Part shown: piece after piece, positions 44,744 through 50,529 of the stretch
How positions within the stretch are numbered: the stretch's first letter is position 1
Layout of the letters: each line of letters begins with the position of its first letter
Assembly: GCA_963716175.1 (NCBI GenBank)
Contig: OY970296.1
Span: 4,000,001 to 4,064,000, forward strand
DNA length: 64,000 bases
Reading direction: 5' to 3'
DNA from: an uncultured Armatimonadetes bacterium
GTDB taxonomy: Bacteria > Armatimonadota > Hebobacteria > Hebobacterales > Hebobacteraceae
Program-made: the position numbers and the translations under genes
The notes under the pieces: model-generated
Databases searched by the model: none
Told to the model about the DNA's origin: nothing
The model's input: the letters and a program-made list of their open reading frames with translations, nothing else

Positions 44744-46123
44744 CTACTTGTGAATGGCGAGGCCGAGCGTATCCTCCGCCGCTTCCTTGATGGGCTCGCT
44801 CAGGGTGGGATGGCCGTGCACCATCTCCCCCAGATCCTCCGCCGTCGCCCCCAGCTGCACCGCCAATACCACCTCGTGGATGAGGTCGGTGGCGCGGGGG
44901 CCAATCACGTGGCCTCCGATCACCTTGCCCGTGGCGGCCTCGGCCACGATCTTGGCCACACCTTCCCGGTGCCCCTCAGCCAGCGCCCGCCCCGCGGCGC
45001 GAAAATAGAAGCGGCCGACTTTCACCTCTATCCCCTGCTCCTTCGCCTGGGCCTCGCTGAGGCCTGTGGAGCCGATCTCGGGATGGGTGTAGGTCACGGA
45101 CGGGATCGCCCGGTAGTCCATCTCCCGGCTCTGCCCCAGCGCGTTCGCCACTGCCACCTTCCCCTCGGCGAATGCCACGTGGGCCAGCAGAATGCCACCG
45201 ATGGCGTCGCCCGCGGCATAGACCCCCGGCACATTGGTCTCCATGTGGGCGTTCGCCTTGATCGCCCGCCGGTTCATCTCGATTCCGGCCTCCGGAAGCC
45301 CGATGCCCTCGGTATTCGGCCAGCGCCCGACCGCGGAGAGCACTAGCTCCACCTCCACCTCCCGCGGCTTGCCGTCGTGCGTGAACTGCACCACCCGCTT
45401 GCCGCCTCGCTCCACCACCCCCGACACCTGGGCGCCCACGAAGACCTCAATCCTGCGCCGGCGGAACGAGCGCGCCAGCTCGGCCGAGATCTCCTCATCC
45501 TCCAGGGGCACGAGGCGTGGGAGCAGTTCGATCAACGTCACCTTCGCGCCCACTGAGCTGAACACATCCGCGAACTCCACCCCAATGGGCCCGGCCCCGA
45601 TGATGGCCAGGCTCTCCGGCACTTGCGGCAGATTCAGGATCTCATCACTGGTCAACACCCCGGGCAGCTCAAACCCGGGAAGAGGCAGCCGCGCCGGCAC
45701 CGATCCCACGGCCAGCAGCACGCGGTCGGCGCTGACTGTCTCCTCTCTCCCCTCCGTCTCCACCGCGATGGCATTCGCCCCCGCCAGGCGGCCTTTGCCC
45801 TCGACCACACGGATTCCATGCTCCTTCATCAGGAGCTCGACGCCCTTGCGGAGCTGCCCCACCACCTGGTCTTTGCGCTGGATCACCTTGGTCCAGTTGA
45901 TCCCCCGGAACTCGCCCTCCACCCCATACTGGTCGAGCTCGCGGGCTTCCCGCGCCACCTCCGCCGACCGGAGCAAGGTCTTGCTCGGGATGCAGCCGCG
46001 GTTGGTGCAAGTGCCGCCGAGCGCGTCCATCTCGATCAGTGTCACCTCCGCGCCTAACTGCCGCGCCCGGATCGCCGCTACGTACCCCGCCGGTCCTCCT
46101 CCCAGAATCGCGATGTGTGCCAA
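44744..46123 (-). CDS. lpdA: Dihydrolipoyl dehydrogenase
   Basis: GGGPAGY, GGTCTNRGCIPSK, HPTLSE. Confidence 0.95.
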   Translation of the reverse strand: MAHIAILGGGPAGYVAAIRARQLGAEVTLIEMDALGGTCTNRGCIPSKTLLRSAEVAREARELDQYGVEGEFRGINWTKVIQRKDQVVGQLRKGVELLMKEHGIRVVEGKGRLAGANAIAVETEGREETVSADRVLLAVGSVPARLPLPGFELPGVLTSDEILNLPQVPESLAIIGAGPIGVEFADVFSSVGAKVTLIELLPRLVPLEDEEISAELARSFRRRRIEVFVGAQVSGVVERGGKRVVQFTHDGKPREVEVELVLSAVGRWPNTEGIGLPEAGIEMNRRAIKANAHMETNVPGVYAAGDAIGGILLAHVAFAEGKVAVANALGQSREMDYRAIPSVTYTHPEIGSTGLSEAQAKEQGIEVKVGRFYFRAAGRALAEGHREGVAKIVAEAATGKVIGGHVIGPRATDLIHEVVLAVQLGATAEDLGEMVHGHPTLSEPIKEAAEDTLGLAIHK

Positions 46124-46153
46124 CTCCCTGGCCTTTCCTTCTTGCGCCCGCGC

Positions 46154-46753
46154 TCAGGCTTGCCGCTTCAGTTCCTGCTCCAGCTTCTCGATATGCATCT
46201 TGGCCACGCTGTCGTCGGGAAAGCGCTTGAGCAGGGCCTGCCACTCGTCCAGCGCCTCCTCCTTGCGACCGGCCAGCTCCAGGGTCGCCGGCAGCATATG
46301 CTGCCAGGCCCGCGGTGCGTCGTGCTGCACTGATTTCCGGAACTGCTCCACCGCCTCGCCGTACTTGTGGCGGCGGTGGTAGAAGAGCCCGAACTGCTGG
46401 TACAGCTCCGGGCTATCGGGATTCTCCTCGATGCCGGCCTGGTACATGGCGATGGCCTCTCCGTCGCGGTTAAGGTTCGCCAGCACCCAGGCGACGTCCG
46501 TGTAAGCATCCACGAAGTGCCGATCCAGCTCGATGCTCTGGTAGCAGAGACGGATGCAGTCCTCCCACTCGCCGGCATGCCAGTGAGTATCTATGTCTGT
46601 GGCCAGCAGATCGAGCAGGAAATCCCGCGTCTCCGTGGTCCGGCGCTCGGCCTCGGCCGCGGGGATGGGCTGCATCCCCTGGTCACGCTGCGCCGCCCAT
46701 ACCACGGCGCCGCAAGTGAGCACCAGAGCCAACGCCACCAGGGCTCGCTTCAT
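46154..46753 (-). CDS. Exported TPR-repeat protein
   Basis: Signal peptide and several TPR-like helices. Confidence 0.8.
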   Translation of the reverse strand: MKRALVALALVLTCGAVVWAAQRDQGMQPIPAAEAERRTTETRDFLLDLLATDIDTHWHAGEWEDCIRLCYQSIELDRHFVDAYTDVAWVLANLNRDGEAIAMYQAGIEENPDSPELYQQFGLFYHRRHKYGEAVEQFRKSVQHDAPRAWQHMLPATLELAGRKEEALDEWQALLKRFPDDSVAKMHIEKLEQELKRQA

Positions 46754-46843
46754 GGCAGAGCTGCTCCTAGCAGAAAGTACTGCATTCTACCGGAATTCGC
46801 GGCCGTTGGGTAGGGCAGGCTCGCGGCCTGCCCACCTCCCCCG

Positions 46844-47422
46844 TCAACCCGGCGGCAAACGTCGTCGCATAGCCGGGATCAGCGCGGCCGCCGCCGCTGC
46901 CTTCACCGCGTCCACCACCACGAAGGGGAAGAGCGACTGCGCCAGCACGGCCAGCAGGCCCGCGCCAGAGCCTGTCATGGCCCGCCACACCGCGAACCAG
47001 GCGGCGCCGCAGGCGTGGATCACGATCACTCCGCACAAGCAGGCCAGAAGCACGCGCCACCCGGCCTGCGCCCTCGACCGGCCAGCGATCGAGCCGGCAA
47101 CCAGCGCGGCCAGCGGGAATCCCACCAAGTATCCGCCCGTCGGCCCCAGCAGCGCGGCCGGCCCGCCGCCGTGAGCGAAGATGGGCAGACCCGCGGCGCC
47201 GGCGGCCAGATACTCCACCTGGCTGACGAATCCCAGCCGCGCGCCCAACACCCCTCCGGCCAAGAGCACGCACAAGACCTGGCCCGTGATCGGCACCGGA
47301 GTGAACGGCACATGGAAGGAGAGGCGGGCGCCGACCGCAGTGAGGACCGCGAACAGGGTCGCGGCCGCCAGATCCACCGCCAGCCGCCGCGCTACTATGG
47401 CTCGCTCCCGCACCTGCGCCAT
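46844..47422 (-). CDS. bioY: Biotin transporter BioY
   Basis: PFTPVPITGQ, GLPIFA.GG, GPTGGYLVGF. Likely start 47422; the upstream ORF extension runs into the IS. Confidence 0.92.
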   Translation of the reverse strand: MAQVRERAIVARRLAVDLAAATLFAVLTAVGARLSFHVPFTPVPITGQVLCVLLAGGVLGARLGFVSQVEYLAAGAAGLPIFAHGGGPAALLGPTGGYLVGFPLAALVAGSIAGRSRAQAGWRVLLACLCGVIVIHACGAAWFAVWRAMTGSGAGLLAVLAQSLFPFVVVDAVKAAAAAALIPAMRRRLPPG

Positions 47423-47549
47423 CACCGTCTCCTCGATGCCGCTATGGCTTCGGCGCGTAGGGACCAGCACCTCTTGGCGCCGACCCGGACAGGAGGTCCG
47501 GACTCGCGCGGGAACACAGGGAGGCAAGAGGGAGATGCAATAACTGATG

Positions 47550-48977
47550 TCAAGGGGTAATCGTGCCTCTGGCATAGCGAGTAAGTTGGAGATGTGGCGG
47601 CTTGTTTTTCCCAGCGCTGATGGTAGAATTACGCTGGGGAGCGCGAGACCTCGACGCCGCCTTGAGTGGTCGTCCCGATTGCATCGGGGCTTGACCCGCG
47701 GCATCTCCAGTGAGGCGTCGCTCCCCCTTCGGTGTCTGGGCCATCTCTTCTCCCCGAGCGATTCCGCGCAGGGCGATCTCTTCCGACCAAGGTTGATTGA
47801 AGGTGAGCACGGCCCAGACGATCTCAGCCATCTTTCGGGCGATGGCACCTCCGGCTGCTTTCTTGGATTTGCCTCGGGCTCGCAGGCGGGCGTAGAAGTG
47901 GCGGATCGCCGGGTTGTATTGGCGGGCGGCGGCCGAGGCCACCAGCAGAGTCATCTTCAGCATGCGGTTGCCCTTGCGGGTCATGCGGAAGCGCAGCTTG
48001 GTGTCTCCGCTCTCCCAGGCAATGGGATAGAGCCCACAGTAGCCCACGAAAGTCTCTTTGTGCGGGAAGCGACGGATGTCGGCTGTCTCGGCCAGGATGG
48101 AAGCCACCGAGACCGGGCCCAGGCCCGGCACCGAAGCCAGAACCGTATCTGGGAAGAGCCGCTCCAGCTCCTGGGCGACGGCTGCGTCCATGCCGTGAAG
48201 GAAACGATTCAGTTGCAGGATGCGGACGGCCGCGTCCTGGATGGAGAGACGCGCCATCATCGGCAGTTGGCGCGCGGGGGCAGCTTTCGCCAGGGCGATC
48301 AGTTTCCGGGCGAAGGCGGCTCCGACACGCTTGCCGTCGGAGTTGCGCAACTCACTCAGGCGAGCCTCACCCCGCCGGAGCAGCTCCTGGGGCGAGGGGC
48401 AGGCGGCCAGCGCCACCAGGGTGCGGACGCTGAACTTGGCACCCAGCGTTTCCCGATAGCCGGGGAAGTGAGTGCGCAGCAGCCGGTGGAGCCGATTCTT
48501 GAGCGAGGTGCGATCCTCCACGCAGCGGCGCCGGGTGCGAGTGGCATCCTGGAGCGCTTCGAATCCCTCGGGCATGGGGGCGCGGGGCTGGGGGCGGATC
48601 TTCGCCAGGAATCGGGCGATCAGCTCGGCATCCACCCGGTCGGTCTTGGTGTCCTTGAGCTCCAGCTTGCGGAACCACTTGACCTCGCGGGGATTGAGCA
48701 CGTGCACCTGGATCGTCCGACGCGTCTCTGCCCGCAGCGCCTTCGCCGCCACCCGATGATATTCGCCGGTGGACTCCACCGCCGCCATCACCTGGGTGCC
48801 GCGACCGCACGCGCGTGCGATCACCATCACGGCCTCGCCGAGCGCGGCCGCGCCGGTCGCGTCGTTGGGGAAGGACTGCACGCCGCCGATGGGCGCTCCG
48901 CTGCCATCGCAGAAGCCGACCTCCAGGGAGCGCGACGAGACATCGATGCCCACGCACAACAACCTCGCTTCCGCCAT
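47550..48977 (-). CDS. IS110 family DEDD recombinase/transposase
   Basis: CVGIDVS, AVESTG, KTDRVDA (RuvC DEDD); VPGLG...WESG...GNRMLK, AIARK (Tnp domain). Start after GAGGAGG. Confidence 0.95.
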   Translation of the reverse strand: MAEARLLCVGIDVSSRSLEVGFCDGSGAPIGGVQSFPNDATGAAALGEAVMVIARACGRGTQVMAAVESTGEYHRVAAKALRAETRRTIQVHVLNPREVKWFRKLELKDTKTDRVDAELIARFLAKIRPQPRAPMPEGFEALQDATRTRRRCVEDRTSLKNRLHRLLRTHFPGYRETLGAKFSVRTLVALAACPSPQELLRRGEARLSELRNSDGKRVGAAFARKLIALAKAAPARQLPMMARLSIQDAAVRILQLNRFLHGMDAAVAQELERLFPDTVLASVPGLGPVSVASILAETADIRRFPHKETFVGYCGLYPIAWESGDTKLRFRMTRKGNRMLKMTLLVASAAARQYNPAIRHFYARLRARGKSKKAAGGAIARKMAEIVWAVLTFNQPWSEEIALRGIARGEEMAQTPKGERRLTGDAAGQAPMQSGRPLKAASRSRAPQRNSTISAGKNKPPHLQLTRYARGTITP

Positions 48978-49029
48978 ACACCACCTCCTCGGCAATGGAT
49001 CTGCCGCCAGCGCGGGAGCTCCTCGTCGC

Positions 49030-49222
49030 CTCCGGTCCCGCTTCGACTCCTGAATTGCGCGGTCGTGCCGCAGGTTGCAATCCAAGCTCCGGACCGGTCG
49101 CCGAGGGGTCATTCTCCTCTTCTCGGTCGCGCCGTAACTGAAATGAAGACCTCGCGCCCGACGCCCCGGCCCGGAGACTATAACCCACTCCATACTGGTG
49201 AAACCAGTACGGATATCCAAGT
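49030..49222 (-). ncRNA. Candidate IS110 bridge RNA
   Basis: Non-coding region between the junction -10 box and the recombinase. It has a 5' hairpin (TCCGTACTGG/CCAGTATGGA) followed by two large stem-internal-loop structures. Boundaries approximate. Confidence 0.65.
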
Positions 49223-49244
49223 TGCAGCATTATAGGAGTCAGCA

Positions 49245-49787
49245 ATGGCCGAGCAGCTATTCGATGGAGCGACTGCCTTCGTGATCGTGGACATGCTGAA
49301 TGACTTCGTGCGCCCGGGCGCGCCGCTGCGGGTGGAGGGAGCGGAGGCCTTGATCCCCATCATTGCCCGCGGCCGGCAGGCCGCCAGGCAAGCAGGGGCC
49401 AAGGTGGTCTACCTCTGCGACGCTCACCGGCCGGACGATCCAGAGTTCCGCGCCTGGCCACCGCACGCGGTCCGCGGCAGCCAGGGCGCGCAGGTGGTGG
49501 AGGAGCTCGCTCCCGAGGCGGAAGATACCGTCATCCCCAAACGCCGCTTCTCCGGCTTCTTCGGCACTGATCTCGATCTCAACCTGCGGGAGCGGGGGCT
49601 GCGGCGGCTGCTGATCTGCGGCATCCTCACCGACATCTGCGTCTATCACACCGCGGCCGACGCCGCCCAATTGGCCTATGAGGTGCTGGTGGCGAAGAAC
49701 GCAGTGGCGGCGGCCACGGAGGAAGACCATCAGTTTGCGCTCAAGCAGATGGCGCGGCTGCTCAAGGTGCGGCTGGCAGAGCTTTAG
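49245..49787 (+). CDS. Isochorismatase/nicotinamidase-family cysteine hydrolase
   Basis: IVDMLNDF, DAH..DDPEF..WPPH, KRRFSGF, GILTDICV. Confidence 0.9.
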   Translation: MAEQLFDGATAFVIVDMLNDFVRPGAPLRVEGAEALIPIIARGRQAARQAGAKVVYLCDAHRPDDPEFRAWPPHAVRGSQGAQVVEELAPEAEDTVIPKRRFSGFFGTDLDLNLRERGLRRLLICGILTDICVYHTAADAAQLAYEVLVAKNAVAAATEEDHQFALKQMARLLKVRLAEL

Positions 49788-50529
49788 CCACCCGCAAGGT
49801 GTGCCGCGGCCGCCTCAGTTGGGCCTGCATCTCGGACAGGGTCACGAAGCGGTAGCCGCGGCGGCGCAGGTCTTGGATGATCTGGGGCAGCGCGTCTATG
49901 GTCTGCTGCACCCCGTCGTGCATCAGGATAATCCCGCCATTGCTGACGCGAGCCAGCACGCGCCGCTCGATCCTACGCTCGCTGCGGCTCAGGTAGTCGG
50001 CGGAGTTGTCCGTCCACAGCACCGTGGTGAGCCCGAGTTCGCCGGCCGCGGTGACGCTCTCGCGATCGTAGCGCCCACCCGGGGGCCGGCAGTATTTCAT
50101 CCGCTCTCCGGTGATCGCCTGCACCGCCTGCTCGCATTCCTCCCACTCGGAGGTGACCCTCTCGCCCGTCAGCCGCGCGATGTTCACGTGGTGGAAGGTG
50201 TGGTTGCCGATCTCGTGTCCGGCCGCCCGCTCCTCCCGCACCAGCTCCGGGTGCTTCTGGGCCATCTTGCCCACCACGAAGAAAGTCGCCTTCACCTGGC
50301 AGCGATCTAACGCCGCCAGCAGCTTCGGGGTGAACTCGGGATGCGGGCCATCGTCGAAGGTGAGAGCGACGGCTTTGACCGCGGGATTGCCGCGGGTGAG
50401 CTTCAGGTAAGGACTGTGCTTGCGCGACCCGCCAGCCGCTGGGCCCGGGCCGGTCGTCTGCCCGGCCGCGCTCGCGGCGAGCAGACAGGCAGCCAACACG
50501 AACGGGAATGCAACACCGCCTCTGAGCAT
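49762..50529 (-). CDS. NodB-type polysaccharide deacetylase (CE4), exported
   Basis: LTFDDGP, HEIGNHTFHH, RPPGG, ILMHDG. Confidence 0.92.
   Translation of the reverse strand: MLRGGVAFPFVLAACLLAASAAGQTTGPGPAAGGSRKHSPYLKLTRGNPAVKAVALTFDDGPHPEFTPKLLAALDRCQVKATFFVVGKMAQKHPELVREERAAGHEIGNHTFHHVNIARLTGERVTSEWEECEQAVQAITGERMKYCRPPGGRYDRESVTAAGELGLTTVLWTDNSADYLSRSERRIERRVLARVSNGGIILMHDGVQQTIDALPQIIQDLRRRGYRFVTLSEMQAQLRRPRHTLRVAKALPAAP

Follow-up and report, generated by a model that had tools for sequence, protein, structure and literature searches.

In the window, a stretch of 64,000 nucleotides, an insertion sequence of the IS110 family lies between two divergent genes, one of the BioY family and one of the isochorismatase/cysteine-hydrolase family (Table 1). 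The ends of this element were set by comparison of four genomic copies and by the loose ends of contigs at 47531 and 49239, which gives a length of 1700 bp; an initial annotation of this DNA had put the start at 47521, which is 10–14 nt outside the element. The copies in the genome are near-identical (n = 4), with 1–3 differences from the window copy. The transposase has an N-terminal DEDD/RuvC-like domain (Pfam PF01548, 5.3e-29, residues 9–172 on profile positions 1–155 of 155) and a C-terminal Tnp (Transposase_20) domain (Pfam PF02371, 2.1e-20), the latter of which aligns to the IS621 and ISCro4 chains of the solved structures 8wt6 and 9t56 (E = 5.7e-16 and 1.4e-17), and the protein matches NCBIfam NF033542 with 225 bits against a cut-off of 140. 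Whole-genome searches of the phylum sample found relatives of the element in just 3/41 and 3/401 genomes. The sole output of a transposase scan over the genome contigs was a set of Treponema and Fibrobacteraceae elements of 23–30% identity, which were set aside.

The target gene is intact and its match to PF00857 is nearly full length (residues 10–172 on profile positions 1–167 of 175). The initial annotation was right to see an IS110 element at the Shine-Dalgarno (SD) sequence of a cysteine hydrolase gene. The right GGAG is followed by 6 nt and then the ATG at 49245, and the host 16S rRNA 3′ end is the canonical CCTCC anti-SD; the layout TATA-GGAG-N6-ATG, with a repeated GGAG that regenerates the ribosome binding site (RBS), is as that annotation described it. 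The host intergenic leader is now 1.7 kb away from the target gene with the IS between them, and from this geometry the insertion should separate the gene from its promoter, as had been proposed. With the element in place, a promoter scan gave no sigma-70 consensus and a single weak terminator-like site.

Table 1. Features of the IS110-family element and its surroundings (positions in the window)
Feature	Position	Strand	Basis or remark
BioY-family gene, divergent from target gene	46844..47422	-	Pfam PF02632, 1.2e-40
Host intergenic leader, should hold the target gene's promoter	47423..47530	+	Geometry
Left core GGAG (4 bp), upstream half of the split SD	47531..47534	+	Shared-sequence limit in four copies; contig loose ends at 47531
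IS110-family insertion sequence	47535..49234	-	Transposase antisense to target gene; four genomic copies
Antisense ORF, 562 codons, spans whole IS	47547..49235	+	Function doubtful
-35 hexamer TTGACA, element's right end	47548..47553	-	Sequence; TTGACA-N13-core also in relatives
Transposase/bridge recombinase, 475 aa	47550..48977	-	Family model spans residues 8–395; C-terminal extension kept in relatives
Predicted bridge RNA in left end	48994..49222	-	Alignment and RNAalifold of 14 left ends; ends approximate, start inferred from -10 box
Donor-binding loop module	49047..49083	-	Nearly invariant across relatives
Target-binding loop module (stem 4, guide 14, hairpin 12, guide 8, 3 nt, stem 4)	49107..49151	-	Left-end scan
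Right target guide, 8-nt 3′ strand of target-binding loop, AAGAGGAG	49114..49121	-	Sense of purine-rich SD strand
Left target guide, 14-nt 5′ strand of target-binding loop, TTCATTTCAGTTAC	49134..49147	-	CAT at positions 3–5, complement of ATG
-10 hexamer TATAAT, element's left end	49229..49234	-	Sequence
Right core GGAG, regenerated SD (A-GGAG including last IS base)	49235..49238	+	Copy comparison, 16S rRNA 3′ end
Target gene, isochorismatase/cysteine-hydrolase family, intact, 180 aa	49245..49787	+	PF00857, 2e-44

The left non-coding end of the element measures 261 nt from core to start codon and the right end 19 nt from stop codon to end, core included. At the sequence level a circular form would join TTGACA, 13 nt, the 4-nt core, and TATAAT, giving a spacer of 17 nt; we infer that circularization would thereby rebuild a promoter across the core, as is expected of the IS110 family, and the arrangement is conserved in relatives. 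No circle junction was seen among the contigs of the sequencing runs, and the window's own IS junctions are bridged by no contig of runs X1–X3.

An empty site is present on a single metagenome contig of run X4, from a strain about 2–3% diverged, and this is the only empty allele found. The contig joins 47528 to 49234, with 3 letters that fit either side. This allele corresponds to the empty site that the initial annotation had reconstructed, less one G of the G-run 47530–47532, and its SD matches the right target guide at 8/8 positions. The reversible switch proposed in that annotation is hypothetical; the empty allele comes from another population and may be ancestral rather than excised. A second X4 joint, from 48856 to 49316 with a shorter side of 24 letters, probably belongs to another organism and was set aside.

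All of the genomic copies (4/4) lie in a single orientation at purine-rich GGAG-N6/8/6/7-ATG sequences that precede ORFs of 180, 434, 255, and 301 aa, respectively. Among the metagenomic relatives, each of which is a single observation, L032, L033, and L035 (91, 86, and 78% identity) have gene starts at N7, N7, and N9, so that RBS placement in the same orientation is found in 3/3 scorable close relatives and, with the genomic copies, at 7/7 scorable sites. The collection of insertion sites that had been suggested as a check on the element's preference places every scorable one of the genomic copies and close relatives just upstream of a start codon. These counts omit L034 and L040 (left flanks of 10 and 2 nt), L041 (no left flank), L023 (left end truncated), and L024 (contig ends at the IS). 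Read in the orientation of the element, the sites have the form CAT-N6-8-CTCC-TCTC, and a CAT lies 5–10 nt from the core at 10/10 sites of elements with TCAT at left-guide positions 2–5 and at 1/5 sites of elements that lack it. The left guides of the 65–68% identical relatives L036, L038, L039, L040, G010, and G013 have no CAT and match a repeated element with inverted ends, not a gene start. The expectation that such insertions spare coding sequences holds broadly; at copy L002 the SD lies within the last codons of a co-oriented upstream ORF, and there the loss is limited to that ORF's extreme C-terminus, which is replaced.

In an alignment of the left ends the first loop of the predicted RNA is variable and the second conserved, and a variable target loop with a conserved donor loop has been published for bridge RNAs (PMC11208160). 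The target-binding loop module was found in 20/20 left ends scanned, and compensatory changes in its closing stem turn GC into AU in 4 sequences and into CG in 1. The right guide ends at its 3′ side with GGAG in 19/20 left ends and with AGAG in L044. The 3′ end of the left guide is TTAC, GTAC, GTGT, or GTGC in the window element, L032–L035, L042, and L043, and CTTC, CTGC, or CTGT in the ten group B left ends and in L044 and L045. Strands are assigned here as in the same published description, where the 5′ side reads the bottom strand and the 3′ side the top strand (PMC11208160). On the donor side, the 5′ strand of the loop contains ATTGCA, which is also present in the right-end terminus, and the 3′ strand has GGAG at its end; the left core of L037, CTCT, is matched by AGAG of the donor-loop 3′ strand. 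The match between donor-side guides and element ends is partial and partly resolved. Rfam gave no match within 46500–50500.

Both strands of the target-binding loop, the 5′ one with its conserved CAT, covary with the flanks across relatives. At the four variable positions of the right guide, the mean number of matches is 2.87 for cognate pairs (n = 15) and 1.69 for non-cognate pairs (n = 170), with 4/4 in L042 (ATGA), L038, L039, and L040 and 3/4 in L045. The left guide was assessed by its longest run of exact matches to the flank of its own element, set against a background of 3000 real SD-ATG sites; part of any such match comes free because every RBS site contains CAT, and this background controls for it. 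The runs are 11 nt in L035 (p = 0.0003), 8 in L033 (p = 0.0007), 8 in L042 (p = 0.0037), 7 in L039 (p = 0.0023), and 8 in L036 (p = 0.0033). The same test is not significant at the four genomic sites (p = 0.12–0.50), where the signal depends on G-U wobble. When the IS copies were removed in silico and all 5425 genomic GGAG-N5-10-ATG sites were ranked by guide complementarity, the four used sites came within the top 3, 18, 1037, and 2156, and their summed guide score has p = 3e-5 (p = 2e-4 when the ranking is limited to the 2500 sites that have an ORF of 80 codons or more). A score of 10 or higher is reached by 18 sites, two of which are occupied. The two sites that are weak for the left guide match it at 5/9 and 4/9 positions after CAT (ranks 2156 and 1037).

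In this subgroup the left guide departs from the canonical register. That register, with the last 4 nt of the 14-nt guide on the core, fits the genomic sites poorly, and a register anchored on CAT was preferred for the subgroup; the latter is post hoc, as the idea was partly formed on the same sites. In the CAT-anchored match 0 to 4 guide bases overlap the core, and L042 leaves a 1-nt gap.

It is probable, in our view, that this is an IS110-family element guided by a bridge RNA whose target-binding loop is written for translation initiation regions. The suggestion that the element is programmed to target RBS motifs is borne out to this extent, that the 4/4 copies and 3/3 scorable relatives lie at SD-N6-9-ATG and that the predicted guides covary with the flanks. 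The sequence, read together with the published IS110 mechanism, suggests that the element would be excised as a circle whose joined ends would form the TTGACA-17-TATAAT promoter, from which the left-end RNA and the recombinase would be expressed. In the first loop, the 3′ strand (AAGAGGAG) would pair with the pyrimidine strand of a purine-rich SD, the crossover core CTCC/GGAG included, and the 5′ strand (TTCATTTCAGTTAC) with the spacer and, through CAU:ATG, with the coding-strand side of the start codon. Recombination at this core would then insert the element within the SD, in every case antisense to the gene, with GGAG left on each side, and because of this the target gene would keep an SD at the native distance. 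Base pairing, promoter activity, and an effect on the target gene's expression are what these arrangements predict.

ISPpu9 and ISPpu10 are IS110 members placed in REP or intergenic repeats. The 65–68% identical relatives listed above behave like these repeat-targeting elements; unlike them, the window element and its close kin are directed to a generic signal that precedes thousands of genes and not to a repeat family. Among the elements with structures, IS621 has REP-like targets, CT as its core, and a left guide of 9 nt in which this core is included. The present element differs in its repeated core of 4 nt and its left strand of 14 nt, the 3′ end of which, in this subgroup, does not resemble the core and the pairing distance of which to the core varies; the IS621 model, where each guide includes the core, does not predict such a floating distance. 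The recombinase of 475 aa, with an 80-residue C-terminal extension, is also unlike those of IS621 and ISCro4. A long left end, a short right end and, as predicted here, a promoter at the circle junction and a two-loop RNA are features it has in common with both (PMC11208160).

The closest parallel in insertion behavior is with the IS110-family elements IS900 and IS901. To our knowledge, the statement that IS900 will "target translation initiation signals" dates from 1997 and came with no known mechanism; the primary reports for insertion of IS900 and IS901 at the SD and start codon are reportedly those of Doran in 1997 and Inglis in 2003. For these elements, which come from the Mycobacterium avium complex, insertion is described as having a single orientation and as falling at the SD and start codon or between the two (PMC2942039), and the present element resembles them in such orientation-specific insertion. 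The target motif of IS900 is given as CATGNNNNNNTCTCCTT in PMC8141618, and our sites share its layout of CAT, spacer, CTCC, and pyrimidines, in the form CAT(G)-N6-(T)CTCC-TT. The present element is 1700 bp long against 1451 bp for IS900, and, owing to the repeated GGAG, it has an SD at either side. None of the best 120 homologues listed (43–100% identity) is a mycobacterial or IS900-named protein, and for that reason the element may represent a clade separate from IS900. A literature search found no paper that links the IS900 target to a bridge RNA.

The position at gene starts could in principle arise if only the purine-rich core, roughly GAGGAG, were recognized and the bias came from selection, with intragenic insertions lost and SD insertions surviving, and if the CAT in the loop were structural and not a guide. 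Such an origin would fit the variable SD-start spacing (N5–N10), the weak left-guide matches at 2/4 genomic sites, the exact-run result at the genomic sites, and the natural enrichment of purine-rich GGAG motifs before genes. Yet just 83 of the 619 RGWGRGGAG sites in the genome (13.4%) are followed at 4–10 nt by the start codon of an ORF of 100 aa or more, and outside a coding mask 22/149 matching motifs (~15%) are SD-like, a rough null since the mask is crude and imperfect and probably marks true SDs as coding. Furthermore, where the left guide varies between independent elements, its bases track the flank (L035, L033, and L042, above), and relatives whose guide has no CAT are found away from gene starts, so recognition of the core alone seems unlikely to us. 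Against the same 13.4% background, the presence of 4/4 copies in the SD context has a chance of about 3e-4, and together with the 3/3 scorable close relatives elsewhere, in one orientation throughout, this makes accidental placement extremely improbable; the abundance of GGAG (68,746 genomic sites) is all that speaks for it.

A different purpose is given to start-site landing by Doran's "hed" hypothesis, under which it would serve the expression of the antisense ORF through host transcription and the host SD, the ORF being either a gene with a function or a spacer that is translated. This ORF begins with an ATG 12 nt past the left GGAG, its stop codon TAG consists of the last two IS bases and the first G of the right core, and its frame has no internal stop in the window element, L032, and L033, while L035 stops 21 nt before the end. 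IS900 is likewise described as having an antisense ORF ("hed") that spans the entire element (PMC8141618), a likeness of doubtful significance. Against the hypothesis, an in-register antisense frame is often open in GC-rich genes (it is stop-free over 475 codons in 87 of 845 long genes, 10.3%), GC3 is 0.66 compared with 0.77 for the transposase frame, group B relatives, where the element-spanning ORF is absent, have 7–10 stops in this frame, and there is no Pfam or NCBIfam match. The ends of the ORF coincide with the -35 and -10 boxes, and its openness in the left end needs no coding selection because the sense frame is also open through that non-coding sequence. We therefore doubt that expression of this ORF accounts for the insertion preference. 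We likewise give little credence to a joint proposal of "stealth" homing, in which the left guide drops core pairing and reads the start codon at a floating 5–10 nt, and the antisense ORF is translated from the host SD copy with its TAG inside the regenerated SD. If it were true, one RNA would address the naturally variable SD-ATG spacing of thousands of genes, and ribosomes would take host transcription and translation across the element as far as the target gene and so avoid polarity, which would explain the long-puzzling "hed" ORF of IS900; both features would be undescribed so far.

Targeting of translation starts is itself not new, as it has already been reported for IS900 and IS901. For an element directed to such sites by its bridge RNA, which is the reading we favor, what is added here is a plausible explanation at the RNA level, in which the likely code of the RNA can be read. 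By the bridge-RNA logic of IS110 elements, the mechanism would be that one strand of the guide mimics an SD and its counterpart holds the complement of ATG. If true, this would be a natural bridge RNA aimed at a generic functional signal and not at a unique or repeated site. The variable spacing of the half-sites would then be tolerated, which would bear on how strict the guide-core register is in these recombinases and on the off-target rules for engineered bridge recombinases. For the transposon, the niche is one in which coding sequence is spared and the gene's SD is kept, and from which it could modulate many genes by uncoupling them from their promoters.

The minus strand of the window carries an IS110-family element whose transposase ORF matches Pfam families PF01548 (5.3e-29) and PF02371 (2.1e-20), scores 225 bits against the NCBIfam model NF033542 for the IS110 family RNA-guided transposase (cut-off 140) and also matches the recombinases of known structure, IS621 and ISCro4. 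The genome, a single contig of 4.56 Mb with 66% G+C, has four copies of the element; relative to the window copy, the other three carry 1, 2 and 3 changes. The limits of the sequence common to the four copies are confirmed by loose contig ends at 47531 and 49239 in sequencing runs X2 and X3, which bear the flanks of two other copies; judged by these limits, the initial annotation began the element about 10-14 nt too far left. The remaining features that it described are present, including the TATA-GGAG-N6-ATG arrangement before an intact 180-aa isochorismatase-family gene.

Coordinates of the element, its features and related loci (window positions unless a genome is named)
Feature	Location	Strand	Remarks
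IS element	47535-49234	-	GGAG either side
Transposase ORF	47550-48977	-	475 aa
C-terminal extension	47550-47790		transposase residues about 396-475
Antisense ORF	47547-49235	+	562 codons, spans element
Three-frame stops	47535-47560		IS end facing incoming host translation
Copy L002	G000:C1:about 814241-815740		in the window's own genome
Copy L004	G000:C1:782976-784682		2-bp deletion, equivalent to 48275-48276
Further IS110-family genes L030, L031	G000:C1:2848895-2850052 and 45070-46215		about 30% identical to the window's transposase
Copy L023	G013:C193, 1270-1440		in another genome, G013

In copy L004 the deletion frameshifts the transposase into two frames, so this copy is probably non-autonomous. 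Two more IS110-family transposase genes (L030 and L031) are present in the same genome. A homologue search (8000 candidates scored, 142 with E of 1e-20 or better) places the transposase in a mostly environmental clade, no mycobacterial name occurs among the best 120 of the 142 homologues (43-100% identity), and the metagenomes containing the element's sequence are from sediment and wetland, going by their labels. The C-terminal extension, which the IS110 family model does not cover, shows strong conservation among 66-68% identical relatives, and the stop codon falls within the -35 hexamer; the conserved region may be either a protein or an RNA/DNA signal.

At all four genomic copies, read in gene orientation, a purine-rich left flank with terminal GGAG is followed by the IS, GGAG, 6, 8, 6 or 7 nt and an ATG, with the transposase always antisense to the downstream gene; the genome's 16S rRNA has the canonical 3'-terminal CCTCC. 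The ORFs that begin at these ATGs are 180, 434, 255 and 301 aa long, and signal-peptide-like starts occur in two. Across the whole genome, 83 of 619 RGWGRGGAG sites (13.4%) are followed after 4-10 nt by a start codon with an ORF of 100 aa or more, so finding four of four copies at such starts has a chance probability of about 3e-4; with coding DNA crudely and imperfectly masked, the SD-like fraction is about 15% (22/149).

A metagenome scan yielded 14 relatives (49-91% identity), and the earlier proposal that the element targets ribosome-binding sites is supported by the genomic copies and by the three scorable members of the four closest relatives (L032, L033 and L035, at 91, 86 and 78%), which are positioned at gene starts of the form GGAG-N7-, N7- and N9-ATG; L034 was excluded from scoring for its flank of only 10 nt. 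In relatives L042 (54%) and L043 (52%) the downstream ORFs are convincing, with the ATG at N10 and N9; in L044 (ATG at N5) the ORF is doubtful and in L037 (ATG at N6) apparently spurious, and L045 has no start ATG. The 65-68% group (L036, L038, L039, L040 and genomic copies in genomes G010 and G013) lies away from gene starts, within a repeated element having inverted ends. This repeated element is about 140 bp long, has imperfect inverted repeats of about 30 bp at its two ends, and is seen at about 1100-1240 and 3000-3060 of L039, in the right flank of L040 and in the flanks of L036 and L038; flanks of this family are found in four metagenome contigs, and the repeat looks like a MITE-like target of this subgroup. 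In copy L023 the left end is missing its first 45-50 nt and the donor-binding loop is shortened by a 30-nt deletion; this copy is likely decayed.

The 261-nt left end contains a module closed by a 4-bp stem, within which a 14-nt strand is followed by a 12-nt hairpin, an 8-nt strand and 3 nt; the module occurs in 20/20 left ends scanned and has compensatory stem changes in 5 of 14 aligned sequences. Downstream is a second, similar and nearly invariant module; published bridge RNAs, as passages of PMC11208160 describe them, have a variable target loop and then a conserved donor loop. The donor loop matches the element ends in part only, its 5' strand through ATTGCA and its 3' strand through GGAG and one further base, with donor-side covariation in L037 (left core CTCT, donor strand AGAG).

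We take the 14-nt and 8-nt strands of the predicted target loop as left and right guides. The right guide of the window's element, AAGAGGAG, has the sense of the purine SD strand. At its four variable positions the guide tracks the right flank, with a mean of 2.87/4 for cognate pairs (n=15) vs 1.69 for non-cognate pairs (n=170), and very different right guides (ATGA in L042; AGAA in L038, L039 and L040) still match fully. The left guides of the window's element, L032-L035 and L042-L044 start with TTCAT or GTCAT, and the bases 3' of CAT track each element's own left flank. Against a background of 3000 real SD-ATG sites, all with CAT, the longest exact runs are 11 nt in L035 (p=0.0003), 8 in L033 (p=0.0007), 8 in L042 (p=0.0037) and 7 in L044 (p=0.013), and the signal is weaker in L043 (p=0.064) and L032 (p=0.17). 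Non-RBS relatives have different left guides, which match their own flanks up to and over the core (p 0.0023-0.078). A CAT lies 5-10 nt from the core in 10/10 sites of guides with TCAT at positions 2-5 and in one of five for guides lacking it; site class is thus predictable from guide class.

When the IS copies were removed in silico and all 5425 GGAG-N5-10-ATG sites were scored against both guides with wobble allowed, the occupied sites ranked in the top 3, 18, 1037 and 2156; their summed score has p=3e-5, or p=2e-4 when restricted to the 2500 sites whose ORF has 80 codons or more. The best-matching genomic site, L002 (11/12 left-guide positions after wobble), precedes a 434-codon ORF, by eye ParB-like/DNA-methylase-like, and its surroundings may be a mobile region that imported the IS.

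The left-guide register appears to differ from that of IS621, in which, as described in PMC11208160, every guide contains the core. A 4-nt overlap of left guide and core is confined to L036-L039, L044 and L045, whose left guides terminate in CTTC, CTGC or CTGT; those of the window's element, L032, L033, L035, L042 and L043 terminate in TTAC, GTAC, GTGT or GTGC, and their CAT-anchored match may stop 1 nt before the core, reach up to 3 nt into it or end in between. The left guide matches poorly at two of the four genomic sites, and the exact-run test gave no significance at any of the four; the CAT-anchored register was partly devised on these sites, and the metagenomic elements supply its independent support. 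The left half-site is apparently floating relative to the core.

Comparison of contigs of four runs with 47000-49800 uncovered an empty allele in X4, where a single contig joins 47528 to 49234 and leaves out 1705 bases; three letters fit both sides of the joint, the shorter side is 30 letters, and the contig is from a related strain of a different study, whose contigs are about 2-3% divergent. The empty site that had been reconstructed from the window is therefore borne out except for one G fewer than predicted, on this single contig, and the window's extra G is either a strain difference or a product of insertion. The eight bases ending at the core in this allele are identical to the right guide, and with it the fourth site would score 9, not 6.

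The isochorismatase-family gene retains A-GGAG at the native distance, its 108-bp leader and any promoter within are displaced by 1.7 kb, and a promoter scan found no consensus promoter in the inserted state. At L002 the SD is overlapped by the end of a co-oriented upstream ORF (open for 195 codons, GC3 0.83), of which just the final codons are lost. Read along the element, the right end closes with TTGACA, 13 nt and the core, and the left end opens after the core with TATAAT, so in a circle form the two would make up a consensus promoter spaced by 17 nt. The arrangement is conserved in relatives, and passages of PMC11208160 likewise place a promoter in the circle for the IS110 family. Reversible insertion is plausible, by analogy, because the family excises as circles.

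The antisense ORF starts 12 nt past the left GGAG and has a TAG stop created across the right junction, and it recalls the 'hed' ORF said, in part of the IS900 literature, to span that element. The frame is free of internal stops in L032 and L033 and closes 21 nt early in L035; relatives of group B, whose left guides end in CTTC, CTGC or CTGT, have 7-10 stops in it. It is the in-register antisense frame, and 87 of 845 long genes of the genome likewise lack stops in that frame across 475 codons; the GC3 is unremarkable, and the sense frame is open across the non-coding left end too; we consider a function for this ORF improbable. The adjoining IS end has stops in every frame within 26 nt; a TGA among them overlaps the antisense-ORF ATG as TGATG.

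Passages of PMC2942039, which cites Doran 1997 and Inglis 2003, and of PMC8141618 report insertion of the IS110-family elements IS900 and IS901 between the SD and start codon, and the IS900 motif CATGNNNNNNTCTCCTT, as it appears in the latter, shares the arrangement of the sites described here. The literature searched, including passages of the seekRNA paper and a 2026 preprint, contained no mention of an SD or start codon encoded by a bridge RNA, which leaves absence unproven. RBS-targeting insertion is thus already known in the IS110 family from IS900 and IS901, and what is added here is apparently a readable RNA code for it and a floating left half-site.
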